A stretch of DNA of 23,499 bases, the filler included, from Folioceros fuciformis (taxonomy: Eukaryota), in NCBI GenBank assembly GCA_049999805.1. It is 5 parts of 5 records of this genome, joined end to end, with 100 filler letters (N's around TTAATTAATTAA, not from the genome) between each part and the next. Parts side by side here need not be neighbours in the genome. Positions count along the whole stretch, not along the records: positions 1,126 to 7,360 come from JBNGIO010007237.1; positions 7,461 to 13,313 come from JBNGIO010007238.1; positions 13,414 to 19,071 come from JBNGIO010007239.1; positions 19,172 to 23,499 come from JBNGIO010007240.1; 1 more part is not named here. One strand, given 5' to 3'. The translations under genes and the position numbers were made by a program. Positions 1,126-23,499 of this stretch are shown piece after piece. The notes beneath the pieces were generated by a model that worked only from the letters and a program-made list of their open reading frames with translations, searched no databases and had not been told where the DNA came from. The stretch's first letter is position 1. Each line of letters opens with the position of its first letter.

Positions 1126-1204
1126 TTTTCAGCATGCTTCCAAGTAGTGCAAACCAGGGAACTGGCGCTTAGGAGAGATCACCCCGCCTCTGGAGGGCAT
1201 CAAC

Positions 1205-1795
1205 ATGCCTCGGCGAGATCGTAATCGACAACTCCAGAAGCAGCGCTCCTGGAAACATCCAACTTTCCAGTCAGCACCAATTGTTGCCTCACGATCTGCT
1301 GAGGAAAATTTGAGCTCTCACCGGAGAAGCGCCGGGGAAGACATTGCTGGTTGGAACGCCCAAGCAAGGCCGTGTGCAGCCTGTACAAGTGGATTTGGTG
1401 CTCACATGTGCTGTCCGTCAAATCATACATTTGCCGTCAGCCGTTCAGGTCTTGGCTACGGCCAGAACATCACTCAGTACCGTAATCCTTTCGCAGGTTG
1501 CACTAGGCGTCCTTACAGAAAATCAAAATCACATAGTTATCTGCACCCTCAACTGTTTGCTATCTTGCAGTCCCTCAATTCGCAAGGACAAGTTCATACA
1601 AAATTACAGCATAAATTAGGGAGTATCTCTGCAAACAGAGGGAGGGATACAACAAATCTGCTTGTGACAATCTTGAGCAAGTTAGATTTTCTGGATAGGA
1701 AGGTGTGTGCCTTGCTAGATGTCCTCATTTCTTTAGATCTGCTACTTAGAAAGACAGATCCTGCATCTGCAAATGGGTCATCTCATGACCCGTAG
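1205..1795 (+). CDS. Upstream accessory ORF0 of element 1, 196 aa, unknown function
   Basis: Intact ATG ORF (AACATGC context) starting MPRRDRNRQLQKQR with a Leu-rich helical C-terminus. Positional counterparts with shared short motifs occur in elements 2 and 3. Confidence 0.65.
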   Translation: MPRRDRNRQLQKQRSWKHPTFQSAPIVASRSAEENLSSHRRSAGEDIAGWNAQARPCAACTSGFGAHMCCPSNHTFAVSRSGLGYGQNITQYRNPFAGCTRRPYRKSKSHSYLHPQLFAILQSLNSQGQVHTKLQHKLGSISANRGRDTTNLLVTILSKLDFLDRKVCALLDVLISLDLLLRKTDPASANGSSHDP

Positions 1796-1808
1796 AAGCA
1801 CTTAGGTT

Positions 1809-4800
1809 ATGGTCTCACGCCCACCTTCGTCAGAAGGAGGGTCTTCAACCTCTTCTTTACCACACACACCTCTGCAGCGACAAAGGCTCCTCAAGATTCC
1901 TTTGAGAACAACGCCTAAGCCTCAGCCAGTACTAAACATGTCTGGAGTACCAGGCGGAGGAGGAGGGGGAGGCAGTGGTGGTGGAGGAGGTGGCAGTGGT
2001 GGGAGTGGTGGCGGTGGTGGTCAGGCACCCCAAGTACCTTCACACACTACCATCACACATTTCAAGGTTGATTTCAAGGACCGTGATCGCTTTAATGGTA
2101 GCGAGTACGAAATTTGGACAATTCGCCTGCGTACCATTCTAGAAGAGCAGGACTTGCTTGATATTGTTTTGGGAACAATTGTGAAGCCACCAGTTGGTTC
2201 CCCACCTGCTGACATTGAGGCTTGGGCCAAGGCTGATCGCCGAGCTCGGAGCATACTGGTCGCAGGCCTTGATAAGAATATGTTGCACCACGTACAAGGG
2301 CTTGACACAGCTGCAGAAATGTGGTCAACCTTCGACCAGATGTTCCAAACCAAGAACTCTGCGTCTATGGTTAATTCAACCAGGGCGTTCTGGCATCTCA
2401 AGATGAAAGAACACGAGGCGATTGAAGCTCACTTGAACAAATTCAGAGCTCTTAGAGCACGCTTGGCAGCATGTGGCACCAAGTTGGACGAGACACAGGC
2501 AGCAACAGCTTTACTCATGTCTCTACCCTCCAGCTACAGAACTTTTGTGTCCTCGCAAAATAATAATATGCGAGCAGCTGGAGGAGGCAACCTAACTAAG
2601 GTTATTGGAGCTCTGTTAGAAGAAGAAGCTACTCGACATGGGAGTAGGCATGAAGGCAGACACGAAGGAAGCTCTAGTCGAGCTTTATACTCATCTAAGG
2701 GGAAAGGACCTCGCATGTCAAGCGGCAGGCAAGGTGGGAAGCGTACCCCGGAGTTTAAGTCAAACAGTTTTAAGAAAAAGGGAACTTGCAATTGGTGCAA
2801 GATTCCAGGCCATTTTGAGCATGACTGTCGCAAGAAGGCAGCTGGAGAGCCCAAGCGGGTAGGATCTTCCAATGCCGAATCACACTCTGCCACAGTCAAG
2901 AAAACTGGTACAATCTTAGCAACGTGTCTAGTGTCCTCAAACGGGGACAAAAGATGCTGGTTCATGGATTCCGGTGCTTCACATCATGTCTGCAATCAGC
3001 ATGAAGCCTTCACTGATTATAAACCTACACTAAATGGACAGACAGTCCGTGTAGGAGATGATAGAGCTCTGCCCATACTTGGAACAGGCTCAGTTCCCCT
3101 TAGGTTGCCATCTGGACATGAGATCATGCTCCTAGATGTCCTTCATGTACCTAGAATGGTGAAAAACTTGGTGTCAGTTACCAAGCTGAAGGTTGCATTG
3201 CCTAGGGTTCGTATTTTGTTTGAGTCCGAACCTGATGAATGCCACATAGAGCAAGATGGTCAGCTGCTGGCCATCGCTTATCCTTCAAATGACTTGTACA
3301 AACTAGAGTGTACACTCTCGCGCATACATGCAGCTGCACATGTCACGCAGGCTGAACAGACTGCCACCTTCAAACTTTGGCATCATCGACTTGGACACAT
3401 TAATGTGCGAAGAATGAAAGCAGCAGTAGTAGGGAACCTGTACAGGGAGCCCCTCAAGTTTCAGCCACAGTCTAAATTATTCTGTGAACCCTGTATTTAT
3501 GGCAAACATCACAAGTTGCCACATACAGATAAAAATCATACGAGAGCTAAGTCGTTGTTGGAGTTGGTTCACTCAGATTTGTGTGGCCCCATGTCGAAGC
3601 GGTCTTTTGGAGGTGCTAAATATTTCCTCTCCTTCATTGATGATTGGAGTAGGTTCACAGTAATATATTTTCTGTCGAAGAAATCACAAGCGTTAGAGTA
3701 TTTCAAGAACTACCTAGCCAATGCTCAACGACAAACCTCCCATCTTCTGAAGTCACTCAGAACAGATGGTGGAGGCGAGTTTGGATCAAACTCTTTCAAG
3801 CAGTTGTGTAGGGAATTGGGAATATCCAGACAACTTACCATTTCCTACACATCGAAGCAAAATCCCATAGCTGAGAGGAGTAACGGTATACTCCAGGAAC
3901 TGGCTAAGGCCTCCTTAGCTCAAGCAGGGCTGTCACTTGGATATTGGGCAGAAGCCGTGGCAGCCGCTGTTTACGTGAAAAACAGACTACCAACAGCCTC
4001 TGTCCCAGGAAGCACTCCTTTTGAGAGGTGGACAGGCCACAAACCCAGAATCTTACACCTTCGTGTATTTGGCAGTCCTGCCTATGCGTTTGTACCAAAG
4101 GAGAAAAGACGTAAGATGCAACCCAATGCTGAAAAATACCTTTTTGTGGGTTATTCAGAGGGAATAAAAGGGTATAAATTATTCAACCCTGCAAATAGAA
4201 AGATTATTCATGCCAGGAGTGTTGTCTTCGATGAAGCTGCGATCCTGAATCGTGTTCACACTTCATTGCCTGAGAAACATTCAACAGAACCCTCAGTCAC
4301 ATCCGAGATAGACGCAGACTCAGATGCTGATGGTTCATGTCAGACAGAATCAGATGAGAATCTTACCATCTCAGGTGACGAAGTCAATGAAGTAATCTCA
4401 GAACCAGAACAAGATTCGGACACACTGTCTGAATCATCATCAAATCCAGATGAGGAAATTCAGGTTCCTGAAGAAGTCAGTCAGTTTACGTCTGCCTCTG
4501 AGTCAGAATCTGAGGATGGTCAAAATGATGTCATTGAGTCTTCAGGTGGTGAGGACTTCCCTCCTCCACCTGTGACACGTCGATCATCTAGATATCGACC
4601 GACTCGTGATAACTGGACAGTCCGCCCGTATTCACCACCCAGCAACTCCCTCCGAACCTCCAGACGTTCAACACGCACATCAGTACGAAATTCTACACAG
4701 GTCCCTGATCAACCTATACAATTTGGGACTGTACCTTCTGATGAGCAACCCTCACAAACAGAGGAAGCTGCAAAGGCTGTCGTGGAGGACATACCTATAG

Positions 4801-6472
4801 AGGGAGTCTGCATTGCTCAAGCTGAACAGTCACAGAGTATCACAGCGCAATCTCTTGTTGCTGAGCTTGCTGGTGAACCTGCCACAATGGCAGAGGCACC
4901 TGTCAGGACCTCATGGAGCAGACTGGCAGGCAGCAATAAAATCAGAGTATGACAGCCTCATTCAAAACATGGAGGCTGGTGCCCTTACCAGCGAGGAGAA
5001 AAGCTGTAACGTGCAAATGGGTTTTTAAAACCAAGCTGAATCCAGATGGGTCTGTTGCACGCTACAAGGCTAGACTGGTGGCTCGAGGTTTCTCTCAACG
5101 ACCAGGCCTAGACTATCAGGATACTTTTTCTCCAGTGGTCAGGTTTACCTCAATCCGCGTGCTTATGTCGTTTGTAGCTCAGAACGATCTCACAATGCAT
5201 CATATGGATGTTAAAACAGCGTTTCTGCATGGAGAATTAGAGGAAGATGTCTTCATGCAGCAGCCCGAGGGATACGTAGACAAAAAGCATCCTACTCATG
5301 TTTGCAAGCTAATTAAAACCATCTATGGTCTAAAGCAAGCCCCTAGGGCATGGTTCCAGAAGTTCAGTACTTTCCTTAAGTCCTTGGGATTCAAGGAGAG
5401 TGATGCAGATACGAATGTGTATCTCTGCACAGACAGTAACAACTTTGTTATTATAGCTCTGTATGTAGATGATGCATTATTGATTACCAATAGTCCTGGA
5501 GACATGCTAGTGAAAGTGAAAGGTCTGCTGCAAAAACATTTCGAAATGACAGACTTGGGGGTCATACGTTTTTTCCTGGGGGTTCAAATCTTGCTTGTAC
5601 CTGCAAAAGGGGCAGTAATCCTGCATCAGGCACACTACATCAATCTGATGCTTAAGACTTTCAACATGGAGGATGCTAAACCTGTGAGTACTCCACTGGC
5701 TGCCGGAGTGCGTTTATCTAAATTGGACAGTCCAGAGACTGATGCAGAAAGGGCTGAAATGCAAGCTGTTCCTTACCGGAAATTTGTAGGGTTTGCATTG
5801 TATTTATCAACCAGAACACGACTTGATCTCACCCAGGCATGTGGCTCACTCTCCCAGTTTGTGGAAAATCCTGGCACAGTTCATTGGACAGCAAGTAAAA
5901 GAGTTATGCGTTATCTTAAAGGCACAAGAAATCTAGGACTGTGCTATAGAATAGACACAACTGTGAAGAAGCTTTTCCTACAGGGATATACGGATGCAGA
6001 CTGGGGTGGAGACCCAGATACAAGACGGTCAGTGTCTGCTTATTGCTTCATGCTTGCTGGTGCTGCAATTTCATGGCAATCAAAGAAGCAAACATTTGTG
6101 AGTACCTCCACAACGGAGGCGGAGTATGGAGCAGCAGCTGAAAGCTGCAAGGAGGCAGTAGCCAACCGCAGGCTTCTAGCAGATATATCTCAGGAACAGA
6201 CAGAACCCACTCCAGTGTTCTGCGATAATCAGTCAGCACTCCTGCTGGCAAGTAATCCTGTCTACCATGCACGAACAAAGCACATAGATTTGCATCTGCA
6301 CTACGTTAGACAGGCCATAAATCGTAAAGAAGTAGCACTTACATATGTGCCTACTAATTCTAATTATGCAGACCTCCTCACAAAACCTTTAAGTAGGGAG
6401 CGGCATGAGTCTCATCTACAGAGTCTAGGCATGGTTGACATTACTTCATATCTGACACATGCATTAAAGTAG
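1809..6472 (+). pseudogene. Copia gag-pol polyprotein with two frameshifts
   Basis: CNWCKIPGHFEHDC zinc knuckle; WFMDSGASHH protease; LWHHRLGH..CEPC; integrase HSD/RTDGGGEF/AER; GIKGY; RT HMDVKTAFLHG, YGLKQAPRAW, LYVDD; RNase H YTDADW, EAEY, CDNQSA, ADLLTK. The conserved LSGPHGADWQAAIKSEYDSLIQN lies in a third frame, so there are frameshifts near 4899 and 4968. An alternative start is ATG 1938. Confidence 0.95.
1953..2021 (+). repeat. GGN-rich low-complexity tract encoding a Gly/Ser linker at the Gag N-terminus
   Basis: Encodes GGGGGGSGGGGGGSGGSGGGGG. Confidence 0.9.
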
Positions 6473-6752
6473 AACAAAACTGGCATGCAGGTATGCCAAG
6501 AAGGCTTAACCTGCAATGTGTTTGGAGTATGTCACGTTAGTCAGAGTCAAATTCTGAGTCAGACCATTTAGCATAAGTCCTAGGCATAGAGGGAGATTCC
6601 GGTCTCCACAGTGAGCATTCACAATCAGAGTCACTGTCCGTTGTCATGTACGTGCATGTCCTTAGGTGCCCCGCAATCTGAAGAGCTCGTAGCTCTGTGA
6701 CTATAAACACCAGTACGAGGTATCAATCTACAGGAACAGCAGCAGCAAAACC

Positions 6753-7079
6753 CTAAAACCCAGGACTGGACGTACTGTAGCGATGGACAGCAACACATGA
6801 TTCATCAATACTGGAGCTCACTCTGATCATCAGATCTAAGGTTTTGTCATCAAGATATTGTGCTGCAGGGCCTACTGGAGTATGCTTCCGATCTCCACTG
6901 TCAACACTGTTGTGGCAGTTCATATTTGAGCGAAGTGAGGTTTGGACTGCAGCATCCGCAGTTTGAGCGCGAGACAAGCGTCTGAGATCGAGGAGTGTCT
7001 GGAGTACAAGACTAAACACCTAATACAAGATCAAGAGCAACATCATAGCTTGCAGCGAACCGTAAACGATGGTGGACAT
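6753..7079 (-). pseudogene. Antisense accessory ORF of element 1 (108 codons, one internal TAG), hydrophobic N-terminus
   Basis: ATG at 7079 reads MSTIVYGSLQAMMLLLILY*VFSLVLQTLLDLRR, in frame with track ORF 6753-7019 (TAG at 7020-7022). VLQTLLDLRR matches VIQLLIDIAR in the element 2 antisense ORF. Confidence 0.6.
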
Positions 7080-7110
7080 CGTGTTCAAGCTAGGTTAAAT
7101 GCAAGCGTCT

Positions 7111-7119
7111 AAGAGGGAG
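7111..7119 (+). other. Polypurine tract of element 1
   Basis: AAGAGGGAG immediately followed by TG; identical in element 2. Confidence 0.9.
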
Positions 7120-7360
7120 TGTCGCAGAAATATAGGAGTTTAGCCCCTTAATTAATTTATATAGCCGCATGCATAAAACCTTGGCAAAACGTCATCACCT
7201 AACCGACACCGGACGTGTCGGTTAGGATAATGGTCGTGTCCCGTCATCTGGACAGACCTGCTGGTCTTGAACGCTCTCCTCACCTGAGCCCTAATTAACC
7301 TTTCCTTTTCTGCTCTCACAAGCTCTGGTCTACCTGTCTCCTACGCGTCGTACTGCGTTA
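7120..7360 (+). repeat. 3' LTR of element 1 (probably nearly complete, cut by contig end)
   Basis: Starts TGTCGCAG right after the PPT. The contig ends CTGCGTTA, resembling the inverted terminus CTGCGACA. AT-rich start and pyrimidine-rich distal part. Confidence 0.8.
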
Positions 7361-7460
7361 NNNNNNNNNNNNNNNNNNNNNNNNNNNNNNNNNNNNNNNN
7401 NNNNTTAATTAATTAANNNNNNNNNNNNNNNNNNNNNNNNNNNNNNNNNNNNNNNNNNNN
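7361..7460. other. Artificial contig spacer
   Basis: 44 N + TTAATTAATTAA + 44 N. Confidence 0.98.
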
Positions 7461-7462
7461 GT

Positions 7463-7804
7463 GATCAGTTCACCAACAAGAGACATTTTCCAACAAATGC
7501 ACCTAAAACACAAAGTACGGAAGACAGAACCTTTGCTGCTGTTGTACGTGTTGAGAGATTGCTATCTTTGGTGCTACATAATCAAGAATTGTTGGAGAAC
7601 AAATTGGAGACTTTCTTGCCAGGAACGAGAGAACAGATCCCGTGGCTCTGCGAGTCAAAATTACATGTGACTCATAATCTGATAGACAAACTTGCACAAA
7701 AATTATGTGATTTTGATATCAGACTACGAGGGAGCATGGCAGATCTACCTCAGGATACAGGATGCTTGCCGATCTTGTCTTCTGGCAACGGCTCTGAGGC
7801 TTAA
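7463..7804 (+). CDS. Upstream accessory ORF0 of element 2, 5'-truncated (113 codons visible)
   Basis: The frame of track ORF 7559-7804 is open back to the contig start (DQFTNKRHFPTNAPKTQSTEDRTFAAVVRVERLLSLVLHNQELLENKL). IDKLAQKLC resembles LDFLDRKVC of element 1 ORF0. Confidence 0.55.
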   Translation, partial: DQFTNKRHFPTNAPKTQSTEDRTFAAVVRVERLLSLVLHNQELLENKLETFLPGTREQIPWLCESKLHVTHNLIDKLAQKLCDFDIRLRGSMADLPQDTGCLPILSSGNGSEA

Positions 7805-8254
7805 TTCTTTCCGCTGCGCGATGGCAGGAGGATGTCAAGCAGAGGTGCATGTGACCTGGTCAGATACCAAGCGTCATCTCCTAGGTCATGTCGCCTCGCT
7901 GCTGGCATCCCTTGCTCGCTGATAGGTTTGCTAGAGGAGTCATACCTGTTCAGCAGAACTCGACATGGAAGTTAGGGCAAGAAAGTGAACCGTTGTCACG
8001 TGACCTAACTTCTGCGAAAAGTCTTTTCTTTAGTAACAGGACAGTTTGATGAGGAGGTTAGCAAGAGAAGGCTAGGATAACCTTTTACCCCTTCCTCTTC
8101 CTGCTACCCCCCCCCCCCACCAAACTATCCCTGCATTTCTGATTAGTTTTGATGTCCAAATCAATCTGTATGAGCAAATATTAGTTGTGCAGGACGTATA
8201 GGTTTACCTGGATCACCTGGAGGCCATAGCTTTACGGTGTCCTGTTAAACCTGC

Positions 8255-11200: not shown

Positions 11201-12538
11201 ACATGGAAGCTGGTAGACCTACCACCCAACCGGAAACCCATTTCGCGCAAATGGGTATTCAAAATAAAACAAAATGACAAGGGAGAAATAGCCAGATACA
11301 AAGCCAGACTTGTCGCCAGGGGTTTTACACAAGTTGAGGGGCTTGATTACCAAGAGACGTTTTCTCCTGTTGTCAAATCACAATCTGTTAGGATGATCTT
11401 AGCACTAGCTGCTGAATACAATCTGGAGTTATACCAGATGGATGTAAACACGGCCTACCTCTACGGTACATTAGATGAGGACCTCTATATGACACAGCCC
11501 GAAGGCTACGAAGACAGACAGCACCCTAATAAAGTATGCAAATTGCTGAAGACCATCTACGGCTTGAAGCAGAGTGGCAGAATTTGCAAACAGCTTTTAG
11601 ATGAAGTGAAACAAATGCTGAGCAGCAAATACGACATGAAGGATATTGGCGAACTGAGATTCAGCCTGGGCATCCAACTGTTGCGAGTCAGGTCTGAAGG
11701 ACTTTTGATGATCCACCAATACCAGTATATCCAGGATATCTTGGTAAAGTTTAAGTTGGATGAAGCACGTCCTGCAACCACTCCTGCAGCCGTAGGAGTC
11801 AAGCTCACAAGCCTGCAATGTCCTCAGTCGGAAACAGACAAACGGGAGATGGTTACAGTACCTTATCGACATGCGATAGGCAGCCTCCTATTTGTTGGCA
11901 ACTGGACGCGCCCAGATATACAGTATTCTGTGAGCACACTTTCCCAGTTCTTAGAGAACCCTGGCCGTGCACACTGGATAGCTGCTAAACGAGTTTTCCG
12001 TCACCTAAAAGGCACACAATGTTACGGACTATGCTATAAGAGTAGTGTGCAGAATCAACTTACTTTAAGAGGGTTTACGGATGCCGATTGGGCATCTGAC
12101 AGTGATAGCAGGAGAAGCCTTTCCACATACTGTTTCCTCCTAGCAAACGCAGCCATAAATTGGAGCTGTAAAAAGCAACTTTCTATTGCCCTATCATCCA
12201 CGGAAGCAGAATATAAGAGTTTGACAGATGCATCTAAAGAGGCAGAATGGGAAAGAGCTTTCCTTTCAGACTTGGGCCAGCCGCAACTGAAGCCAACACC
12301 CCTGCTATGTGATAATCTGTCAGCCTTAGCCCTCGTTGCTAATCCCAGATTCCACGCTCGAACAAAACACATAGACATTCAGCACCACTATATTAGGAAT
12401 GTGGTGGAACGTGCTGTTGTGAAGGTTGATTACGTCCACACCGACGAGAATACAGCTGACGTGCTTACCAAGGCCCTGTCAAAGACGAAACACTATCAGC
12501 ATATGGAAGGACTTGGTTTGCGTGATCTGTCTGGTTAA
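8255..12538 (+). pseudogene. Copia gag-pol with one in-frame stop and an RT-core deletion
   Basis: CNWCGIAGHWAREC, WYLDSGATSH, HAD/RTDNGGEF/AERKN, QMDVNTAYLYG, FTDADW. The TAG at 11039-11041 is in frame with 11075-12538. The YVDD segment is missing after YGLKQSGRI (near 11585). Confidence 0.95.
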
Positions 12539-13313: not shown

Positions 13314-13413
13314 NNNNNNNNNNNNNNNNNNNNNNNNNNNNNNNNNNNNNNNNNNNNTTAATTAATTAANNNNNNNNNNNNNNNNNNNNNNNNNNNNNNN
13401 NNNNNNNNNNNNN
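13314..13413. other. Artificial contig spacer
   Basis: 44 N + TTAATTAATTAA + 44 N. Confidence 0.98.
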
Positions 13414-13447
13414 ACTCTGTGGGGCTGTCCACCATGTAAGCATTCAA

Positions 13448-16400
13448 TCAGGCAGTAAAATACTTGTTGAAATCTACGAGACCTAAACCCTCTACATGCG
13501 TCTGATGTTTGTGTTTGGGCTGTGGTTTAGTGAGGACATCAGCCGTATTTCCGTCAGTGTGGATATAAACAGGGCTGACAATTCCCCTAGCCTTGACATC
13601 CCTAACGTAGTGATGTGCAATTTCTATATGTTTCGTTCTAGCGTGAAACCTAGGACGATCAACAAGGGCTAGGGCAGATTGATTATCACAGTGCAGTGTA
13701 GTAGGGAGTAGCTGCTCACAGTGCACTGAGGAGAGGAAAGAGCGTGCCCATTCAGCTTCTTTCGCAGCATCGGTGAGGCATTTATATTCTGCTTCAGTGC
13801 TTGAGAGGGCAATGCTGCTTTGTTTCTTACAGCTCCATGTAACGGCTGCAGAAGATAAGAAGAAGACATATGTAGACAAGCTCTTGCGTGTGTCCCCATC
13901 AGATGCCCAGTCAGCATCAGCAAAGGCTGACAAGGTAGGTGTTTCTCTTGTTCTTTTGTAGCATAGTCCATAATTATGTGTCCCCTTCAAATAACGAAAT
14001 ACTCGTTTGATGGCAGTCCAGTGATTACGGCCAGGACAGTCCAGAAATTGAGAGGCTGTGTTCACAGCATATGTGATATCTGGCCGAGTCCAATTACTTA
14101 CAAACAATAAGCTGCCGACTGCGTGCCGGTATGGGACATCTTTCATATCAGCAATGTCAGCAGCTGAAACGGGACTGTCATCCTTGGTGAGTTTGACACC
14201 ACTTGCACAAGGTGTGTTGGCAGGATGTGCATTGTCCATGTTAAAACGTTGGAGAATTTCTGAAATATATTTACGCTGATGGATAATGATCAACCCCTCT
14301 GCACGTACTCTCAATACTTGTATACCAAGACAAAATTTCAGCTCCCCTACATTTGTCATTTCAAATTCTGTTCGTAACATGTCTTGAACTCGTGCTAACA
14401 AGTGGGTATCATTTCCAGCAAATATGGCATCATCAACGTAAACAGCCAGAAGAACATAAGAGGTGCCATCATCATAGATGTAGACAGAAGGATCTCCAGG
14501 GCTCTGTCGAAATCCAAGGCCCTTTAGGCAAGTATCCAGTCTTGCATTCCACCGTTCTGCACTTTGTTTAAGGCCGTAAATGCAATTAATAAGCTGACAC
14601 ACATAGTCTGGATGATCAGGGTCTTCATAGCCTTCGGGCTGTTCCATATACAATTCTTCTTCGAGTATCCCATGTAAGAAGGCCGTTTTCACATCCATTT
14701 GCTACAGTTCTAAGTCACGCTCAGCAGCTAAAGCAAGCATGAGGCGAATTGATTGAGAGCGTACCACTGGAGAAAATGTCTCTTGGAAATCCAGACCAGG
14801 TATTTGTGTGAATCCACGTGCGCAGAGCCTTGCTTTATAACATGCTATGTTACCATCAGCATCTAACTTATGCTTGAATACCCATTTGCAGGTTATAGGT
14901 TTGCGCCCCTTAGGACGAGGAACAAGTTTCCAGGTACCATTTTGCATAAGACTGTTGAATTCATCATCCACAGCATGCCTCCATTTATCTCTATCGGGAC
15001 CTGAAAATGCTTCTTTGAGAGTGACAGGCTCAGGAGGGATAATGGGCAAAGAGGCATTGTGGACAGATGGGATACAGACTCCCACTGACTTACGAAAGTC
15101 GATAGATGTGTAACGGGGCTCTAGCCATTCAGAGGGAGGGCAATGAGCACGTGTAGACCTACGTACAGGTTCATGTGTAACATCAGCTGAAACTGGCAAT
15201 GCTGGTAATGTCTCTTCTTCACCAGAAGAATCAGAAGATTGGGAAGAACTGTCAGGTTCAGGTTCTGATTCTACGGGGTTAACTGGATTGTGGGGAAGAT
15301 CATGATCTGAATTTTCAGCATTGTCATGTGCAGATTCTACATCAGGCTCTGCATCTAGTGGAGTATCAGCTGGAGGAGCAGGTGGGAACATGACATCAGC
15401 ATCAGCTTCACCGTCAACATCATCTGGATACTCACCAGAATTTTCAGAATACAATTGGCTGGTAGAATCCCCCAAAGTGCCTGGTAAATAAGGAGAATCA
15501 GCTGATGATGGAACCAAATGCTCAATAAAGGTAACACTACGGGCTACCACCGGCTGCATATTGTGCATATCAAGAATTTTGTAGCCCTTAGTCACTTCAC
15601 TGTAGCCTACAAATACAAGCTGTCTCGAGCGATTGTCAAGCTTACGTCTCTTCTCTGCAGGCACATAAGCAAAGGCTCGAGAACCAAATATGCGAAGATG
15701 TAAAAGACTTGGCTTTCTATTCCAAAAGAGCTGAAAAGGTGTGCCACCAGGAACAGAACGAGAGGTAAGGCGGTTCAAAATGTAGGTTGTTGTGACAACA
15801 GCCTCAGCCTAGAAAGGATTGGGCAGTCCAGACCATAAAAGCATGGAGCGCGTCATCCCCATCAGAGTCTGGTTCTTTCTTTCCGCCACGCCGTTCTGCT
15901 GCTGCGTGTATGGAACTATCAGCTGATGGATAATGCCTTGTATTTCCAGGAAATGCTCAAAGGCAAAGCTTGTAAATTCCCCTCCGTTGTCGGTGCGGAA
16001 CATCTTCAGCATGCGACCAGATTGCCTTTGAACAACCAACAGCCAGTCTTGAAATATCTGAAAGGTGTCACTCTTATGCTCCATAGGGTAGGTCCATGTA
16101 TATCTGCTATAGTCATCAGTGAGAGTAAAATAATATAATGCTCCACCAAGAGATTGTTCTTGAAGTCTCCCACTAATGTCAGCATGTACTAACTCCAGAA
16201 CTGCCGTGGATCGAAATGCAGGAACTGTAGGAAAAAGAGTCTCCCGCTGTTTTGCCAAAGCACAAACTTCGCATATGGGCAGATCTTTGAAACAGCGAGG
16301 AAGAGGCTCCCTGTAACAGTCCTGCCTTGATAAGTCAACAAGTTTAGAACGGTTTGCATGCCCAAGGCGGGCATGCCAAAGTATAACCTGCTGAGCTGTT

Positions 16401-17794
16401 GTCAAGGGACCAACAGCTGTTGAATTTACTTGTTCACGGCGGATACAAGAGATATCCAGACGATACAATTCTGAATCTAGGACAGCTTTGAAAATACAGC
16501 GAGAAGGTGAGCTACAATGAGCAAAGCAACATGTGGTTTCTGAGACTGTAAGTATGAGGTCCTTCATCTGCATTATCTTGCTAAGTGACATTAAATTTTT
16601 AGCCATCTTAGGAACATAAAGAACATCTGGTAAAACTAAGACAGTATCATCATGAAGTGGGAACTTACAGATGCCTTTACCATGTATGTGCAGACTGCTG
16701 GAACTGGATTCATCACCTAAGAACACTCGTTCAGAAATAGTGGTAAGGGTCAAGCTAGTGAATTGGAGCTCATCACGACATATGTGAGCGGTGGCACCGC
16801 TATCAAGGTACCAACTGTCTACCTCACTCGTTTGAGTGCTCAGGCAGACTGTTAATATTTTCACAACTGGTTTGCTTGACTGAGGTTCGGAAACCTTTTC
16901 TTTTGATTGTGATGTGGCAGGTGCAGCTGTAGGTCGAGGTGTTGCCCGTTGAGGCTCCCCGGCCTTTTTCTTTCTGCACTCTCTGGCCCAGTGCCCAGGA
17001 GTCCCACACCAATTGCAGTTACCTTGTCTCCTTGATGCAGAAGGTTGAGTGGCATTGCGCTGAGCAGGTGGTTGACCTCTCCCTCTGCCTCTCATGTTGA
17101 ATCGACCCCCTCTTGTCGCAGAAAAAACTTTGTCAGTTTTAGAACGGCTGTGTTGTCCCCTTGATGACATTTGGCGGCTCATTTCCTCTTGATATAGAGC
17201 CCCAATAACATCTGTGAGCTTGACACTCTGGCTGGCAGCTCGAATGGGACCATTTTGCGTGGTGACAAATGTCTGGTAATTGGGAGGCAGGCTGGTGAGA
17301 AGCTGAGCTACCGCATCCACCTCTTGCATAGTTGTGCCAAGAGCAGCCATTTGAGCACGCAAGTGCCTAAATCGACTAGTGAATGCTGCAACAGAATCTC
17401 CTTCCTTCATGCGCAAGGTATAAAATTGCTGCCTTACTGCGCATAAGCTCATCATTGTTTCAACTTTATAAGTTCCTGTAAGCTGATCCCAAATTGCTTT
17501 TGCATTGGTGAGAAACTCGACTTCAGGGACAAGATCAGACTCAAGCCCATTGACTAGGAGGGCTACAGCAATTCTGTTCAGGTTATCCCATGCATCTTTC
17601 TGTTTTTGAGTAACAGTAGCTCCTGCTGTTGTAGGATTAGAAGGAGTGCCGGGATCTGGTTTTGTCCCATCAACTACATCCCAGACTCCACGAGCAAGTA
17701 AAGTGGATTTCATCCTAACACTCCAAATATCAAAACTCGTGCCATTAAATCTGTCTGTACTCTTAAGATCAGAGGTAAAAGTAGGGGCTGACAT
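13448..17794 (-). pseudogene. Copia gag-pol with two in-frame TAG stops
   Basis: Three track ORFs share one frame. The likely start is ATG 17794 (MSAPTFTSDLK, matching MTDPTFTSELK of element 2). Stops at 15809-15811 (conserved Trp of WAEA) and 14702-14704 (before QMDVKTAF). CCHC, DSG, DDE, YVDD and RNase H motifs are present. Confidence 0.95.
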
Positions 17795-18146
17795 GACTGT
17801 ATGTGTGCAGGTAGCTACAGCTGTACAACAGAAAAGATGGAGGCAGCAAGCAAAGACCAACTAACAAGGAAGACGTAACTAATGCAAAAAATGAATAGTA
17901 ACCATTCAAATCTTAGTGTGTAACTGTCAAGATACGAAACGTGCCCTAAAAAATATAAACTAGGGCTAAAGGAAGGAAAGCAGTTGGGATTCAGCAGAAC
18001 ATGAAGGGAAGCCTACAGGTGACATACTCAGGTAACCCTAATCGTCTCTTCATATCTGCAATCTGTGGCTGGAGCAATTGAGCAGATACTGCAATCCAGC
18101 ACCAAATCCCTAATTGCAACTCCTCTCCTTGTGCAGCGGAAACAAA

Positions 18147-18789
18147 TCACAGGATCGTGATAGGTGGGCAATCATGCTCTGAAGATTTAGATTCTCCTGA
18201 AATGAATGGTGACTCCGCCTTCAATTTCTCAAGGGGAGGTAAATTAGAAGCTCCAAGTAGAAGTAGCAATTGATTGCTGATACGTTGCAAATGACTAGAG
18301 TATTCTTCCTTCAAAGAAGAAAGTGCATGTTGAAGGCGTTTCTCTTGTTCATGCATAACCTCTAAAAAAAAAATCCTGTTTTGCGCGCAATTGAGCCACA
18401 CGTGTCTCAATACGATTATAATAAAATTCCACCACAGAATAAGCATCTTCATAATCAGGATATTCAAAATCAGAATCTTCTGAAATAGCATCATCAAGAA
18501 ACTCCAAATTGGACCGAAATTTATGATTTTCAGGAACTGGTTTTGAGTGGCTCCTGGGAGCCCCAATCTCTTGATGCCTATTCCTACTTTGCTCCCGCGT
18601 CAAGTTGCGGAGCCTTCTTTGTTCTTGCAATTGCTACTTCCAAAATTGTCGTAGTGAAACTCGATAATTATTGAATGTCTCATCGGTCCATGGCAATTTA
18701 GGAGTGGGTGGAGGAATATGTGATTCACGCTGGTGCCTTGGAGGAAATTCACCACGCGAAGAAACACGTTCTCCACGACCACGTGGCAT
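18147..18789 (-). pseudogene. Upstream accessory ORF0 of element 3 (about 213 aa reconstructed)
   Basis: ATG 18789 reads MPRGRGERVSSRGEFPPRHQ...FWK*QLQEQRR (TAG 18634-18636), in frame with track ORF 18349-18630. Removing one base from the 10-nt homopolymer at 18364-18373 joins it to ...FLEVMHEQEKRLQHALSSL, ending at 18147. Confidence 0.65.
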
Positions 18790-18823
18790 TGCAAGATACA
18801 AAGGATTCAAACACCATCAAGGC

Positions 18824-18835
18824 GCTCTGATACCA
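18824..18835 (-). other. Primer binding site complementary to initiator tRNA-Met
   Basis: TGGTATCAGAGC on the minus strand directly after the LTR-terminal CA. Confidence 0.95.
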
Positions 18836-19024
18836 TGCGGAGATACCTCATGCATCTAGCAAGAAAGGCCAGCATGCAGAGGCATGCGAGAGCAATAGAA
18901 CAAAACGATGTGTATTCAATAATAAGCAGAAAAATGTTATATACAAAAAGTACCCTATTAACCCTAAATAACATAACCTAAAAGTAAGTAGGGATATTTA
19001 ACCGTCGGGGTTATTAATCCAACA
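18836..19024 (-). repeat. 5' LTR of element 3 (about 189 bp)
   Basis: The minus strand reads TGTTGG...CCGCA then the PBS; AT-rich with an internal TATA. The 5' boundary is inferred from TGTTGG and a composition change, since no second copy is available. Confidence 0.75.
18937..18943 (-). promoter_or_regulatory. Putative sense TATA box in the element 3 LTR
   Basis: TATATAA on the minus strand in mid-LTR, followed by T/C-rich sequence. Confidence 0.5.
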
Positions 19025-19071
19025 CTGGCGAGGAATCGGGTCTGTGGCTGGTTTCCTGATGTTGGGCTGTG

Positions 19072-19171
19072 NNNNNNNNNNNNNNNNNNNNNNNNNNNNN
19101 NNNNNNNNNNNNNNNTTAATTAATTAANNNNNNNNNNNNNNNNNNNNNNNNNNNNNNNNNNNNNNNNNNNN
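19072..19171. other. Artificial contig spacer
   Basis: 44 N + TTAATTAATTAA + 44 N. Confidence 0.98.
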
Positions 19172-19173
19172 TG

Positions 19174-22100
19174 GACGTGACTGCTCAGCTGCTTTCTAGC
19201 TTGCCTTCATCCTACCAGAATTTTGTGTCCAGTCAGAACTCCATTTTGCGAGATGCATATAAGGAAGTTGCTTCTGGTCTTCCTTCCACCTTAAGCTTGA
19301 ATGAAGTGGTTGGTGCCCTGCTACAGGAGGAACAGAGCCGTCAGAGGTCTGGTTCCTCTCGCCTGCGAGGAGACAAGGTTTTGGTTGCTAAAGTGAAAGG
19401 GCCTTGGAAAGGAAAGACTAAAGGAAAACAGCAGCAGATGTTCTCACCTGGACAGTATGCTGGCTCCTTTTTGTCTACTCCAGTGAAGCGCCAGGGAAAC
19501 TGTAACTGGTGTGGTGTAGCTGGACATTGGGAAAGAGACTGTAAGAAAAAGAAAGCAGGGAGTCCGAAGCGCGAGAGTAAACCTAAAGCTCATGTTGCAA
19601 CAAAGGACTCCAGGAATCCTTCTTCTTCTTCAACTCTTCCCAGAAGTAGCAGTACTGCGTTGACAGTTTGTCTCACTTCTTCCTGCCATGGTCCATCATG
19701 TTGGTTTGTCGATTTTGGAGCAACAGCACATGTCTGCAATGATAGGGATCAGTTTGCAGCTTTTCGCACACGGTCTTACCCACAATCTGTTTTTGTTGGT
19801 GACTCTCGTGCTATACAAGTCAAGGGAGCTGGCATAGTACACTTGTCCTTGCCTGATGGTTCGTCCTTGACTTTAGAGAATGTCCTTTATGTACCTGACA
19901 TGAGTAAAAATCTATTATCAGTCCGAGCAATTGCACAAGGTTCTACTTACGGTTTCAGGTTTGAGGACAAGTGTTGTTACCTTTACATGTTGTCTGAGCC
20001 TGAAACCTACATAGCCAAAGTTACACTGTGTGAGGACTTGTATCAGTTAGACACAGTGTCTAAAGACAAAGCTAGAGTTCTTGTTTCTTCTGTCAATGCT
20101 CAAGCTTACCTCTGGCATGCTCGCCTAGGTCATGTGAATTGCTCTAAGCTGGATTTGATGTCCAGGTCTGATTGTTATCGGGAACGTCTTCCTTCTTGTT
20201 TCAAGCACTTGCCTGTGTGCAGCGCATGTGCCTTATCCAAACAGAAGGAGCTCCCTTTTCCTAAGTCTGCCACAAGAGCAAAGGGAATCTTGGATTTAAT
20301 TCATGCAGACATTTCAGGAAGAATGCCTGTCAAATCACTTGGAGGCGCTGAGTATTATCTTACCTTGACTGATGATTATTCACGTTATACCTGGACATTC
20401 CCCATGGCTGTGAAGAGTGAGGTGTGTGACATCCTTTTAGCTTGGATTCCTATGGTTCATCTGCAGACAGGACAACAGGTTAAATGTTTCCGTACCGACA
20501 ATGGGGGAGAGTTCACAGGAGGAAATGTGGATGCCTTGTTTCGTCAGTACGGAATCACTAAGCAACTTGCTATTCCATATACCCAGCAACAGAATGGTGT
20601 GTCCGAAAGGAGGAATCAAATTCTTATGGGTATGACACGGAGTGAGCTGTCTTGGTCTGGATTGCCTAAATCCTATTGGGCTGAAGCTATTGTCTATGCT
20701 ACATATACTCTGAATAGGGTTCTTACCTCTGCTGTCGTTGGTCGGACTCCATATGAGGCCTTCTGGGGTCGAAAACCTAGTATTCTCCATCTGCGAGTGT
20801 TTGGTTCACTTGCTTATGCTTATATTCCTACACCCAAGCGAAACAAGTTGGATGATAGGTCTCAGCCACTTGTGTTTGTTGGTTATTCAGAGGAATCTAA
20901 GGCTTACAAGTTGCTGGACCCTGCAACTAAGAAGATTGTTCTAGCTCGAAGTGCTACTTTCAAGGAACTTTTATTACCTCGTGTAGTGTCCTCTGTAGAG
21001 CAACTTGATGCAGGGAGTTGTGGTGAATCTGCAAGTCCAAGTCTGGAGCATGAGTCAACAGATGCTTTAGTTCCAGCTGTTTTTCCTATGTCAGATGGTG
21101 AACCAAGTGTTGTGGATGATGCTTCAGACGTACATGGTTCCTCTACTTCAGCTGTGAATCAGAACTGTGAGCAAGACAGTGAGCAGATTTTAGTACCTGA
21201 TGTACAAGGGGCTGATGTTGTGGAGCCTCTTGACATTCCTCATGATGATGGTTCAGATTCCTTGTCAGTTGCCAGCAGTGCAGAGTCTGTTGCTGATGAT
21301 TCAGATACTTTGCCTCATGACACTACAGCTGCAGAGGGAGTACAACCACCTATCATTCATGAGTTAGAACCAGCTGAAGATCCTCCTCTACCAGCTGAAG
21401 ATCCTCCTCCTAGGTATCCAACAAGAGAAAGGAGAGGACGAGCTGACTGGATGGAGTCACCATACCAAGCTGTTGATTTCCGGAGGTCTTATGCCCATGT
21501 TGTTGATGTTCATGTGCCTGAGGTGAGGCCAGATCCACAAAGCTATTCGGAAGCCTTGAATGGACCGGATGGTCATCATTGGCGTATCTCCATCGATGAT
21601 GAATATAATTCTTTGATTAAGAATCACACATGGGAGCTTGCTGATCTCCCGCCTGGCCGTAAGCCTATCTCCTGCAAATGGGTGTTTAAAACCAAGTTGA
21701 AGTCAGATGGTACTATAGCACGCTATAAGTCACGCTTAGTAGCAAGAGGTTTTTCACAGATACTTGGTATCGACTATGGTGACACTTTTTCACCAGTAGT
21801 GAAGCCACCCTCTATACGTATTCTTCTTGCTATGGCTGCCGAATTTGACCTTGAATTGCATCAGATGGATGTGTGTACAGCCTTTCTGCATGGTGAGCTT
21901 GAAGAGGTACTGTACATGCTCCAGCCTGAAGGGTTTGTGGACAAGAAGTTTCCAAAGAAGGTGTGTAAGTTGTTGAAAACTATCTACGGTCTTAAGCAAA
22001 GTCCTCAAGCGTGGTATAAACGAATTACAGCTTTTCTAAGGAAACATGGCTTTATTCAGTCTCCAGCAGACTCTAATGTATTTTACCTTGCTGTTGGGTC

Positions 22101-23121
22101 TTCCTTTGTCATACTTGCCCTTTATGTCGATGATGCCATCCTCCTCAGTGACCAGATGGTACACATGGATAGGGTTAAAGCCTTGTTGCGTACTGAATTC
22201 GAGATGACAGACCAAGGCCCTCTTCAATACTGCTTGGGTGTACAGATTCTGCGGGACAGGAGTACACATTCCATTGTACTTCATCAGACAAAGTATATTA
22301 AGGAAATATTGATACGCTTTCATATGGATTTAGCCAAGCCTTTATCTACACCTTCTGCAGTGGGGGTAAAACTTACTGTAGAGCAGTCCCCTCAAGATGC
22401 AGATGAGGTGGAGTATATGTCTACAGTTCCATATGCAGAAGCTGTAGGCAGTCTTATTTTTCTGGCGAACTGGACCCGGCCTGATATCAGCTATGCTGTG
22501 AGTTCCGTTTCTCAGTTCCTGAAAAACCCAGGGAGAGCACATTGGTCAGCTGTTAAGCGTATATACAGATTTCTAAAAGGCACTCTTAATTATGGTTTAC
22601 ACTATATTTCAAGTGGAAATAGAGATCTTACACTTACAGCTTTCACAGATGCTGATTGGGCATCAGACGCTGACTCTCGTCGTAGCTTATCAGCTTATGT
22701 TTTCACCTTGGCTTCTGGTGCTGTGAACTGGTCTTGTAAGAAGCAGTCTTCCTTAGCCCTGTCATCAACAGAAGCCGAGTATAAGTCTCTCACGGATGCA
22801 TGCAAGGAACTTGAGTGGGAAAGGCGTTTCCTTGAGGCAATTCGCTTACCACAGACTGATCCGACTTTGCTCTTCTGTGACAATATGTCAGCAATTGCCC
22901 TAGTCTCCAATCCCAGGTTTCATGCTCGTACAAAACATATAGAGCTTTACTATCATTATATCCGGGATGTGGCAGATAGAGGCATAGCCCGCGTATAGTA
23001 CATCAACACAGACTCTAATACAGCTGATATATTAACTAAGGGCTTGCCTCAGTTCAAACATTATCAGCATATGGCAGCTATGGGACTGAAAGAGTTCTCC
23101 CTACCTCTGCCTAAAGCCTAA
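19174..23121 (+). pseudogene. Copia gag-pol, 5'-truncated, with a premature TAG near the end of RNase H
   Basis: CNWCGVAGHWERDC; protease motif altered to DFG (19711-19719); HAD/RTDNGGEF/SERRN; LYVDD; FTDADW. After the TAG at 22996-22998 the frame continues YINTDSNTADILTKGL to TAA at 23119-23121. Confidence 0.95.
21369..21410 (+). repeat. 21-bp in-frame tandem duplication (PAEDPPL/PAEDPPP)
   Basis: ACCAGCTGAAGATCCTCCTC[T/C] twice in the INT-RT linker. Confidence 0.9.
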
Positions 23122-23287
23122 AGTACAAAAATGTGGCTACAGCCTGTCAGTCATGAGCAAACAAGTGTGTTTCTTACAGTTTCAGATAGCTGGGAAGGCT
23201 GCTTTCTGTATGGAGGAAACTCTTCACCTACACATGAGCTGACAGGCTTTCAGAATACACACAGTGGATGAAGCTGTAAAGCGCAAA

Positions 23288-23497
23288 TCAAGTCGTGGGT
23301 GTGTTCTGCAGTTTACCGTATCCCATTTGCTCCAGCCTTCCAACGATTGTCGTGAGTTCTTCTATGGTCGGAGGGATCTCGAAGCCGCAGTTGTCAGGAG
23401 TCTTTGCAAGCAGGTCCCTCAGCTCCAGGACCTTGTCGCGCGCCACGTCCATTGCCTCTCTGGCTTCTTCACACTTTAGGGCAGTCTTCTGAAGATG
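23288..23497 (-). CDS. Antisense accessory ORF of element 4, C-terminal 69 aa (start beyond window)
   Basis: Open frame HLQKTALKCEEAREAMDVARDKVLELRDLLAKTPDNCGFEIPPTIEELTTIVGRLEQMGYGKLQNTPTT*, not in the ORF track. It has 8/21 identities with QLQTAAALLEQIREASEVTAN of element 2. Confidence 0.65.
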   Translation of the reverse strand, partial: HLQKTALKCEEAREAMDVARDKVLELRDLLAKTPDNCGFEIPPTIEELTTIVGRLEQMGYGKLQNTPTT

Positions 23498-23499
23498 GC

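Follow-up and report, generated by a model that had tools for sequence, protein, structure and literature searches.

Stop-poor, strand-specific open frames in the long spacers of a decayed Ty1/copia clade of Folioceros fuciformis

Results

The window analysed here, a stretch of 23,499 nt from Folioceros fuciformis (GCA_049999805.1), is made up of five contigs with N linkers between them; Ty1/copia elements (E1 to E4; Table 1) lie on four of the contigs. These four separate contigs occupy positions 1126-23499, with N runs and a 12-base linker at 7361-7460, 13314-13413 and 19072-19171. A gag-PR-INT-RT element was found on each of them, in agreement with an earlier note on this DNA that had placed copia elements on separate contigs. 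The Pfam scan of E1 revealed Retrotran_gag_2, Pol_BBD, gag_pre-integrs, rve and SH3_retrovirus, followed by RVT_2 in the next ORF; E2-E4 align with E1, and the best 120 database matches are copia polyproteins. All four elements display the copia order gag - protease - integrase - reverse transcriptase/RNase H, with the integrase placed before RT. The gag-pol frames are broken in 4 of 4 copies, and the final ~40 residues of E4 pol lie in a different frame (22999-23121). Both this decay and a sample of four copies count against reading the flanking frames as accessory ORFs.

Table 1. Positions of the copia features in the window
Feature	Position	Strand	Remarks
E1 ORF0	1205-1795	+	196 aa; stop 13 nt upstream of gag-pol ATG; length p=0.001
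E1 gag-PR-INT; RT-RH	1809-4952; 4949-6472	+	Frame broken near 4950; Pfam domains in copia order
E1 zinc-knuckle signature	2787-2851	+	
E1 3' spacer	6473-7110		Pol stop to polypurine tract; 638 nt
E1 antisense frame	6540-7094	-	185 codons; three internal stops (7022, 6755, 6725)
E1 polypurine tract and LTR start	7111-7360	+	Tract 7111-7119; LTR (TGT...) from 7120; 15/16 bases as in the PPT/LTR start of L001
E2 5' region	7461-8254	+	Longest ATG ORF 57 aa (p=0.30)
E2 gag-PR-INT; RT-RH	8255-11041; 11075-12538	+	Frame broken between the two
E2 zinc-knuckle signature	9125-9189	+	
E2 antisense ORF	12609-13166	-	185 aa; fills the 646-nt 3' spacer
E2 polypurine tract and LTR start	13185-13313	+	Tract 13185-13193; LTR from 13194; motif as in E1
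E3 gag-pol	17794-15809; 15778-14702; 14698-13448	-	Three pieces; pol stop 34 nt before contig end
E3 zinc-knuckle signature	16953-17017	-	
E3 leader	17795-18823	-	PBS to gag ATG; 1029 nt
E3 ORF0	18147-18599	-	Within the leader; 150 codons stop to stop, 115 aa from ATG
E3 primer binding site and LTR end	18824-19071	-	PBS 18835-18824; LTR end ...CA; 236 nt of LTR
E4 gag-pol	19177-23121	+	5'-truncated within gag; polyprotein frame 19177-22998
E4 zinc-knuckle signature	19501-19565	+	
E4 antisense frame	23288-23497	-	69 codons, open at contig end; length p=0.17-0.28

The zinc-knuckle signature CNWCxxxGH[WF]xxxCxKKxAGxPxR, described earlier as common to the elements, is present in all four, and its back-translated pattern gave 4 matches against 0 expected. 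The full signature occurs in none of the 120 best database matches and its loose form in one (P0001). In an RT-RH tree of 124 sequences, five group as one clade (E2+E3, joined by E4 and next by E1+P0001) with SH-like support of 96-99, which bears out the single lineage claimed before. E1-E4 are decayed members of one Ty1/copia clade, within which the gag-INT identity of E1 and E2 is only 37%, and the closest relative of E3 is E2 (56% identity).

No LTR pair was found inside any of the contigs, each of which covers the internal portion of an element and no more than a piece of one LTR. The LTR of E1 passes the contig end and continues at 1126 onwards, and one run contig links position 7360 back to 1126; this joining of contig end to start suggests that the two LTRs of E1 were collapsed in the assembly. 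The polypurine tract (PPT)/LTR-start motif is common to E1, E2 and the metagenome contig L001. The genome uses a plant-type tRNA-iMet primer site; the E3 primer binding site (PBS) matches the plant tRNA-iMet motif at 12 of 12 bases. The combination of ...CA and this PBS was found in E3 only, PBS-like matches in E1 and E2 being at chance level.

The spacers before gag and after pol in the E1-E4 clade are unusually long, and those after pol are of nearly equal length in E1 and E2 despite the low gag-INT identity of this pair. L001 resembles E1 in its signature (CNWC..GHW...C.KK.AG.P) and its PPT/LTR start (GGGAG/TGTCGCAG), but it is compact, and the RT-RH tree puts it on a long branch outside the E1-E4 clade. 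Its repeat unit measures 4477 bp and gag-pol occupies a single frame of 1412 codons; only ~25 nt follow pol and there is no leader, neither spacer being present. Comparison with L001 suggests that the clade gained a leader (~0.5-1.0 kb) and a 3' spacer (~0.64 kb).

ORF lengths in the spacers were tested against 2000 shuffles. The extra sense ORF that the earlier note placed before gag in E1, E2 and E3 holds for E1, is borderline in E3 and falls to chance level in E2. The frame of E1 ORF0 has 2 stops in 227 codons as compared to 9 in each other sense frame; codon-position periodicity is absent from it (p=0.21), and no Pfam, PDB or Atlas match and no relative of 107-343 aa was found for it. In E3, the length of ORF0 is borderline (p=0.012-0.03) and its periodicity reaches p=0.0185; the best sense frame of the leader holds 6 stops in 342 codons (p=0.001), the other two 11 and 29. 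The 5' region of E2 has a 113-codon frame (7463-7804; p=0.03) which is open at the contig start and lacks a usable ATG; when the contig is assumed to close into a circle, the earliest Met of the frame is still only codon 104 of 125, and no periodicity was detected in it (p=0.54). E2 is without a credible ORF0 even though it is the closest relative of E3, an observation that speaks against the accessory-ORF reading.

The antisense ORF reported after pol in E1, E2 and E4 stands firmly in E2, where none of the 2000 shuffles gave an ORF as long (p<0.0005), while the lengths in E1 and E4 are those expected by chance. The E2 ORF begins with an ATG 19 nt inside the polypurine tract and ends 73 nt away from the stop of pol; its periodicity is significant (p=0.001) and its GC3 is 0.64. 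A search of 1.84 billion representative proteins matched it to one element copy and to two repeat proteins only. In P0121, which comes from another public assembly, the frame is kept with 67% identity over 81 aa, ungapped. The 185-codon antisense frame of E1 agrees with the E2 ORF in place and size. The longest uninterrupted antisense frame of E1 is 88 codons (p=0.18-0.41), and in near-identical run contigs the frame is open over 113 codons. Within the 88-codon frame, near-identical E1 copies differ by 2 synonymous changes, 5-6 replacements and a stop; these few differences look neutral, being those expected without selection. The E4 antisense frame displays periodicity (p=0.011), a GC3 of 0.63 and a codon-position make-up resembling that of E2, and these GC3 values are unlike those of gag-pol (0.37-0.45). 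The in-phase sense frame of E4 is equally open, over 78 codons of the same DNA, which again speaks against an accessory ORF.

By length, two of the six frames are clearly non-random, one is borderline and three are at chance level. As a statistic tolerant of decay we took the stop count of the least interrupted frame on the named strand, and its p values are 0.0075, 0.09 and 0.001 for the 5' sense frames of E1, E2 and E3 (combined 8e-5) and 0.085, 0.0025 and 0.60 for the 3' antisense frames of E1, E2 and E4 (combined 0.006). No stop depletion was recorded on the opposite strands (p=0.27-0.82; combined 0.88 for 5' and 0.58 for 3'). The orientation pattern described before, sense ahead of gag and antisense behind pol, is thereby supported for stop-poor frames. 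On the 3' sense strand the longest ATG ORFs are 28, 68 and 46 aa (p=0.96, 0.24 and 0.40). Periodicity is stronger in the antisense frames of E2 and E4 and in E3 ORF0 than in random codons free of stops; the LTR pieces display none (p=0.91 and 0.98). A codon model trained on gag-pol ranked the open frame top in only 3 of 6 candidates and gave the antisense ORF of E2 a score like that of a wrong frame.

Similarity between the accessory frames was not detected by all-versus-all blastp and tblastn (E>0.3 throughout), by Smith-Waterman scores against shuffles (p=0.09-0.87 for the relevant pairs), by hhalign (probabilities <1%) or by hydropathy and global alignment. Only one Smith-Waterman score was high, that of E1 ORF0 with the E3 leader, and its alignment crosses five stops; gag of the same element pairs scores 228-430. 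No match to these frames was found in Pfam (E up to 0.1-1), PDB or the ESM Atlas, for which the 'recognition' values were 1417 and 1823, most real families reaching 2300. AlphaFold2 confidence was low (pLDDT 46 and 39). The only conserved DNA patch between the E1 and E2 spacers has alignment gaps that break the frame, which likewise counts against accessory ORFs.

Discussion

The three-gene copia lineage put forward in the earlier note is retained in part: the lineage and the stop-poor frames on the named strands persist, while the uniform layout and similarity between the accessory frames do not. The layout cannot be called uniform because E2 lacks a credible ORF0, the E1 antisense frame has three stops, and E4 offers a 69-codon fragment with an equally open sense frame. 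That the stop-poor spacer frames are lineage-specific, fast-evolving accessory ORFs, partly decayed in these copies, is a reading for which we hold the scales about level. The antisense ORF is better supported than ORF0.

If the frames are accessory ORFs, the antisense ORF of ~185 codons would start 19-32 nt inside the polypurine tract and run convergent to pol, intact in E2, interrupted in E1 and cut off in E4, and the leader sense ORF would be intact in E1 and shorter in E3, with none in E2. By analogy with Grande, for which an own promoter upstream of the antisense ORF has been described (PMC7264820), the antisense ORF may be transcribed inward from the 3' LTR region. Either its protein or the pairing of sense and antisense RNA could act on the cycle of the element itself, and the leader ORF might act as a long upstream ORF limiting gag-pol translation. 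A stronger form, which we consider unlikely, would have the clade keep both accessory genes, the sense leader ORF and the convergent antisense ORF, throughout the divergence of gag-pol to 37% identity, both evolving at such a rate that nothing but position, size, strand and codon periodicity remains; the antisense gene, with its own G+C-rich third positions, would then be the first gene of aORF-3R type to characterise a copia lineage.

The frames may instead be non-coding by-products of spacers that work at the RNA or DNA level (in packaging, priming or promoter spacing) or that are simply junk, with the two long ORFs as the upper tail for spacers of 0.6-1 kb with a local composition beyond that captured by dinucleotide shuffles. 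We regard this as doubtful but a real contender: three of six frames have chance-level lengths, the frames of different elements are dissimilar though gag aligns readily, the Pfam, PDB and Atlas searches were empty with sub-threshold 'recognition', structural confidence is low, near-identical copies differ as if neutral, and the conserved DNA patch carries frame-breaking gaps. It does not account well for stop depletion tied to orientation and frame across elements that are independent and diverged, with control strands free of it, nor for periodicity above stop-free random codons in three frames, a frame of the same size and place in E1 and E2, and its retention in P0121. The mutual dissimilarity of the frames would equally be expected if the ORFs were real and unrelated, the spacers having been filled independently in each family by captured host or transposon fragments or by de novo ORFs, as proposed for SIRE, with no common three-gene ancestor. 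The departure of the antisense GC3 from that of gag-pol fits such an origin, as does the description of copia extra ORFs as 45 mutually dissimilar groups in PMC6317226; yet spacer length, orientation and frame limits agree between E1 and E2, E2 and E4 have a common codon-position make-up, and no host-gene relative emerged among the 1.84 billion representative proteins, so we hold independent filling to be quite improbable.

Least probable, and in our view very much so, is that the 3' spacer is the remnant of a SIRE-like sense ORF after pol, the antisense frame being open merely through its phase with the former codons. The in-phase sense frame of E2 does have only 4 stops over its 215 codons, where another sense frame has 15, that of E4 is open over the same DNA as its antisense frame, and the sense reading of P0001 continues ~235 residues beyond the end of pol. 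However, stops are fewer in antisense than in sense (no internal stop against four in E2, 5 against 9 in E1), the 3' sense strand is without stop depletion (p=0.82, 0.27 and 0.43), its ATG ORFs are all ≤68 aa, and the P0001 tail has no match anywhere in the window. Gly, Arg and Ala abound in this tail, a composition suggestive of G+C-rich DNA, in which long open frames arise easily.

Extra ORFs of LTR retrotransposons are common and their function is poorly understood. Should the accessory-ORF reading be true, with a copia clade keeping an antisense gene by the 3' LTR and perhaps a leader ORF, the layout would have arisen more than once, and the clade would offer a small, tractable system for the function of such genes, e.g. 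self-regulation via protein or antisense RNA. If the frames are neutral, they warn that orientation-specific open frames in spacers can look convincing in a few copies.

Grande, RIRE2 and Retand are Ty3/gypsy elements, as are Ogre and Retrosat2, and ORF1 of Ogre is a sense ORF upstream of gag. The account of known elements given in the earlier note agrees with the literature consulted, in which the named antisense examples are not copia and SIRE alone has a characteristic copia extra ORF. The plant examples of aORF-3R named in PMC7264820 are not copia; in PMC4093653, 15 of 15 bean families with an antisense ORF2 are gypsy and two copia families have sense env-like ORFs; and in PMC6317226, the catalogued copia extra ORFs are very heterogeneous and characteristic of SIRE only. 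The ORF0 of rice Retrosat2 is a separate sense ORF between 5' LTR and gag (PMC4093653, PMC3485330).

E1 and E3 ORF0 resemble Ogre ORF1 and Retrosat2 ORF0 in being separate sense ORFs between 5' LTR and gag. The Ogre and Retrosat2 ORFs are longer and kept across copies, whereas here ORF0 occurs only in E1 (196 aa) and E3 (115-150 codons), mutually unrelated, and E2 has none. The E2 antisense ORF is like the aORF-3R of Grande, RIRE2 and Retand in its orientation, its place after pol and ahead of the 3' LTR, the enlarged 3' region and the want of an informative database match. It differs from these in the copia domain order of its element and its short length (185 aa), and from Retand in that no Transposase_28 or other Pfam domain was found in the antisense frames (E up to 0.1-1). 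In the Tat clade, to which these three elements belong, the integrase follows RT/RNase H, whereas it precedes RT in E1 to E4. An antisense ORF is kept there in most copies of a family; the copies here comprise one intact (E2), one with three stops (E1) and one cut off (E4), to which one diverged relative is added. A sense env-like ORF after pol as in SIRE (Sirevirus) was not found on the 3' sense strands, and the open frame here is antisense, unlike that of SIRE. With SIRE the elements here share the copia backbone, a putative extra ORF in an enlarged 3' region and the heterogeneity of the extra ORFs.

Composition of the window and relationship of the copia elements

The contigs of the window are separated by two runs of 44 N around a 12-base linker, TTAATTAATTAA, which carries stop codons in all frames. 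The first contig holds a fragment of a DDE_1 (pogo/Tigger-type) transposase and has no relation to the four Ty1/copia elements, E1 to E4, of the remaining contigs. The Pfam domains of E1 follow the copia order, that is, gag, protease barrel, pre-integrase, integrase and SH3-like domain, then RVT_2. The polyprotein is broken in all four elements, into two pieces each in E1 and E2 and three pieces in E3; the last ∼40 pol residues of E4 lie in another frame. Identity to E2 over gag-PR-INT is 37, 56 and 46% for E1, E3 and E4, respectively. The only tandem repeats of the window are a Gly-codon run in the gag of E1 and, in E4, a duplication of 21 nt; Rfam at gathering scores gave no match across the window. 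The Gly run, at the N-terminus of E1 gag, consists of imperfect 9-21-nt repeats; the database protein P0001 has a Gly/Pro-rich N-terminus in the same place.

Coordinates of the features (positions along the whole stretch)
Feature	Position	Strand	Remark
DDE_1 transposase ORF	179-937	-	contig 1 (1-1025); Pfam E=3.5e-27
Junctions	1026-1125; 7361-7460; 13314-13413; 19072-19171		filler and linker
E1	1126-7360	+	Ty1/copia
E1 Gly-codon run	1956-2021		gag N-terminus
E1 antisense frame	7094-6540	-	185 codons between outer stops, three internal stops
E1 polypurine tract (PPT) and LTR start	7111-7120		LTR from 7120
E2	7461-13313	+	Ty1/copia
E2 leader motif	8193-8225		upstream of gag
E2 antisense residues 36-76	12939-13061	-	
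E2 PPT and LTR start	13185-13194		LTR from 13194
E3	13414-19071	-	Ty1/copia
E3 leader motif	18046-18010		upstream of gag
E3 second open frame	18349-18633	-	94 codons
E3 primer site motif	18835-18824		
E4	19172-23499	+	Ty1/copia, truncated within gag

The earlier note had assigned the four elements to a common lineage, and this assignment is borne out. The extended zinc-knuckle signature CNWCxxxGH[WF]xxxCxKKxAGxPxR occurs in the gag of all four (four matches of the back-translated pattern against none expected). In the RT-RH FastTree of 124 sequences, which has SH-like support only and contains no reference lineages, E2 and E3 (96), then E4 (99), then E1 with P0001 (96) form one clade. Among the 120 best matches of a search of 5.8 billion proteins, the full signature was found in none and its loose form only in P0001; an ordinary CCHC knuckle was present in 108 of the 121 rows of the comparison of best matches.

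Termini, primer sites and spacers

No LTR pair lies inside any contig of the window. The PPT AAGAGGGAG followed by TGT is common to E1 and E2. Between the PPT/LTR start of E1 and that of an unrelated metagenome element, 15 of 16 bases agree, a level that none of 200 shuffles reached. In E3, an LTR-like end in CA is followed by a 12/12 match to the tRNA-iMet primer site motif; the best primer-site matches of E1 and E2 (8-9/12) are at chance level. Positions 1623-1640 of E1, considered as LTR end plus primer site by likeness to those of E3, were rejected, the score being under the 95% mark of the shuffles. A complete tRNA-Met is described as the primer of most copia lineages (PMC6317226).

Contigs of the public sequencing runs were compared with E1 only. 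One of them connects the E1 end, 7360, to its start, 1126, possibly with ∼63 letters between, and another ends 28 nt beyond the E1 LTR start; we therefore read the E1 contig, and this one alone, as one collapsed LTR plus internal region, opened inside the LTR. The run contigs also include an 85%-alike copy over E1 1398-1847. Run X3, which shares its sample with X1 and X2, shows hardly any differences from 1126-7360 other than C>T (284) and G>A (375). A bisulfite-converted library would produce this pattern, and methylation of the element could then be read from the run. Run X4, guessed to be RNA, touches E1 only in 34-40-nt pieces at 1952-2010, which is the low-complexity Gly stretch of gag, and 5055-5094.

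E1 has 638 nt between pol stop and PPT, E2 has 646 nt and E4 at least 378 nt; in E3, primer site and gag ATG are 1029 nt apart. The leaders of E2 and E3 have in common a candidate motif of 33-36 nt, where local alignment of their 5' regions scores highest (27).

Scanning of metagenome contigs with the signature pattern gave a single locus, the compact copia element L001 (1-4763, 58% G+C), and scanning of viral contigs with the strict and the looser pattern gave none. The first 286 bases of L001 recur at its end with 99% identity, which indicates a repeat unit of 4477 bp wrapping round the contig. Its gag-pol is a single 1412-codon frame, with PPT and LTR start ∼25 nt after the pol stop and the gag start directly after a short LTR. 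L001 carries the knuckle signature, yet it falls outside the E1-E4 clade on a long branch. Since this signature-bearing out-group is without either spacer, both spacers are additions in the clade of the window. P0001, the only database member of the clade, continues in sense reading ∼235 residues beyond pol, and so it also has a long 3' region; its post-pol tail gave no match to the window. The gag start of L001 carries ATGGGCCCA, which resembles a half-tRNA-Met primer site. Such sites are mentioned for Osser, Bryco and Gymco-II (PMC6317226).

Open frames in the spacers

Lengths of the accessory frames against 2000 dinucleotide shuffles of the respective flank
Frame	Length	p
E1 ORF0	196 aa	0.001
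E3 ORF0	115 aa from ATG; 150 codons stop to stop	0.03; 0.012
E2 5' frame	57 aa from ATG; 113 codons, open at contig start	0.30; 0.03
E2 antisense	185 aa	0/2000 shuffles
E1 antisense	56 aa from ATG; 88 codons stop to stop	0.41; 0.25
E4 antisense	54 aa from ATG; 69 codons stop to stop	0.17; 0.28

The frames considered are ORF0, on the sense strand of the leader before gag, and an antisense frame between pol and PPT. That every element with the respective flank carries such an ORF, as had been proposed, is too strong a statement, since two frames are clearly long (E1 ORF0 and E2 antisense), one is borderline (E3 ORF0) and three are at chance. By ORF length, p was at least 0.13 on the opposite strand of each of the six flanks. 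On an assumed circular join, the first Met of the E2 5' frame is codon 104 of 125. The second open frame of E3 lies in another frame and overlaps the first half of ORF0, so that this leader holds two partly overlapping stop-free frames.

Decay of the frames was tolerated by a test counting stops per frame, with the fewest stops in any frame of one strand as the statistic.

Fewest stops in any frame of one strand (p)
Flank and strand	By element	Combined
5' sense	0.0075 (E1), 0.09 (E2), 0.001 (E3)	8e-5
5' antisense	0.67 (E1), 0.72 (E2), 0.63 (E3)	0.88
3' antisense	0.085 (E1), 0.0025 (E2), 0.60 (E4)	0.006
3' sense	0.82 (E1), 0.27 (E2), 0.43 (E4)	0.58

The antisense strand of E1 has 5 stops in 212 codons in one frame against 14 and 16 in the others. 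The 185-codon stretch between the outer stops of this frame starts 14 nt from the PPT and leaves 67 nt to the pol stop; for the E2 antisense ORF, the distances are 19 nt between PPT and ATG and 73 nt between ORF end and pol stop. Near-identical run contigs of E1 lack one of the internal stops, and their frame has an open run of 113 codons.

Codon-position composition, in a test calibrated on stop-free random codons, is non-random in E2 antisense (p=0.001), E4 antisense (p=0.011) and E3 ORF0 (p=0.0185), and not so in E1 ORF0 (p=0.21) and the E2 5' frame (p=0.54). LTR pieces and the rest of the spacer display no codon periodicity (p=0.20-0.98); the gag-pol control, with the same test uncalibrated, gave p<0.01 in 77% of 26 windows. 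The antisense frames of E2 and E4 are purine-rich at first positions, with third-position G+C of 0.64 and 0.63 against 0.37-0.45 in gag-pol.

The E2 antisense protein, searched exhaustively with phmmer against 1.84 billion representatives, gave three proteins. P0121 (91 aa), encoded on a 1188-nt contig from a different public assembly, aligns gap-free with residues 67-147 at 67% identity, so that at least 81 codons of the frame are retained in this one diverged copy. P0121 lends the frame modest support, because gene callers report open frames only. The other two are repeat proteins with E ∼1e-4. Seven stretches of P0122, a tandem-repeat protein of 446 aa from another public assembly with units of ∼58 aa, match E2 antisense residues 36-76 with 39% identity (library E=2e-4); the corresponding DNA is the only conserved patch that the spacers of E1 and E2 share. 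A spacer of this kind may have given rise to P0122 as a satellite, or the match may be due to chance.

Interpretation of the frames

The most likely reading, at about even chances, is that the spacers contain accessory ORFs which are specific to the lineage, evolve fast and have partly decayed in these dead copies; of the two, the antisense ORF has the better support. It is less likely that the frames are non-coding by-products, against which stand the strand-specific scarcity of stops and the periodicity. Several results are counted against genes. Between near-identical E1 copies, the changes in the 88-codon frame are 2 synonymous ones and 5-6 replacements, with an expected synonymous share of 0.23-0.34. 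The outcome of a codon model trained on gag-pol, a test of weak power, is mixed and is likewise counted against genes: the open frame ranks first in three of six candidates, and the E2 antisense ORF scores as a wrong frame does. So are the failure to find any match for the accessory frames in Pfam, for the E1 ORF0 and E2 antisense proteins in the PDB (sequence search, E up to 1), or any usable match for these two in the ESM Atlas, together with the low confidence of the AlphaFold2 models of two accessory proteins (pLDDT 46 and 39). A word-indexed protein search gave no match for E1 ORF0 among proteins of 107-343 aa and none for E2 antisense among those of 101-324 aa, limits below which P0121 falls.

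Lack of likeness among the accessory frames also counts against genes, and it is what independent, unrelated captures would leave; that reading is improbable, and the two 185-codon antisense frames take up nearly the same place between pol and PPT. All blastp and tblastn comparisons between accessory frames gave E>0.3, and Smith-Waterman scores of the meaningful pairs against shuffles gave p=0.09-0.87, the gag controls scoring 228-430. A single high score was rejected, as its alignment passes through five stops. The hhalign probabilities are <1%, and neither hydropathy nor global alignment relates the two 185-codon frames significantly. The best DNA alignment of the E1 and E2 spacers (6880-6918 with 12951-12990), at equal distance from pol, has frame-shifting gaps, which is counted against genes as well. 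A decayed sense ORF as the source of the 3' frame is highly improbable. The periodicity is blind to strand as against the in-phase complement, and this complement is open for 78 codons in E4; it has four stops in E2 and nine in E1.

Comparison with known elements

If the spacers do hold accessory ORFs, the antisense ORF would be expressed from the 3' LTR side and the accessory ORFs may have a regulatory role, by analogy with Grande (PMC7264820). Antisense ORFs are named in Grande, RIRE2, Retand, PvRetro13 and Boty in that paper; copia comes up in its covered part solely as a model element and in the title of one reference. PMC4093653 describes 15 gypsy families with an antisense ORF2, and an extra ORF in 2 of 65 copia families, sense and env-like in both; PMC2533021, in the part covered, deals with gypsy only. 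In the literature covered on copia elements with an upstream or antisense ORF, no description of the present layout was found; the supplementary tables of PMC6317226 may list copia 5'-forward and 3'-reverse ORFs. That survey reports 582 copia elements carrying extra ORFs of 250 codons or more; the ORFs fall into 45 groups and occur in all four classes of position and orientation. In its covered text, the sense 3' ORF of SIRE is the only extra ORF named as characteristic of a copia lineage. The frames of the window are shorter than its 250-codon cut-off.
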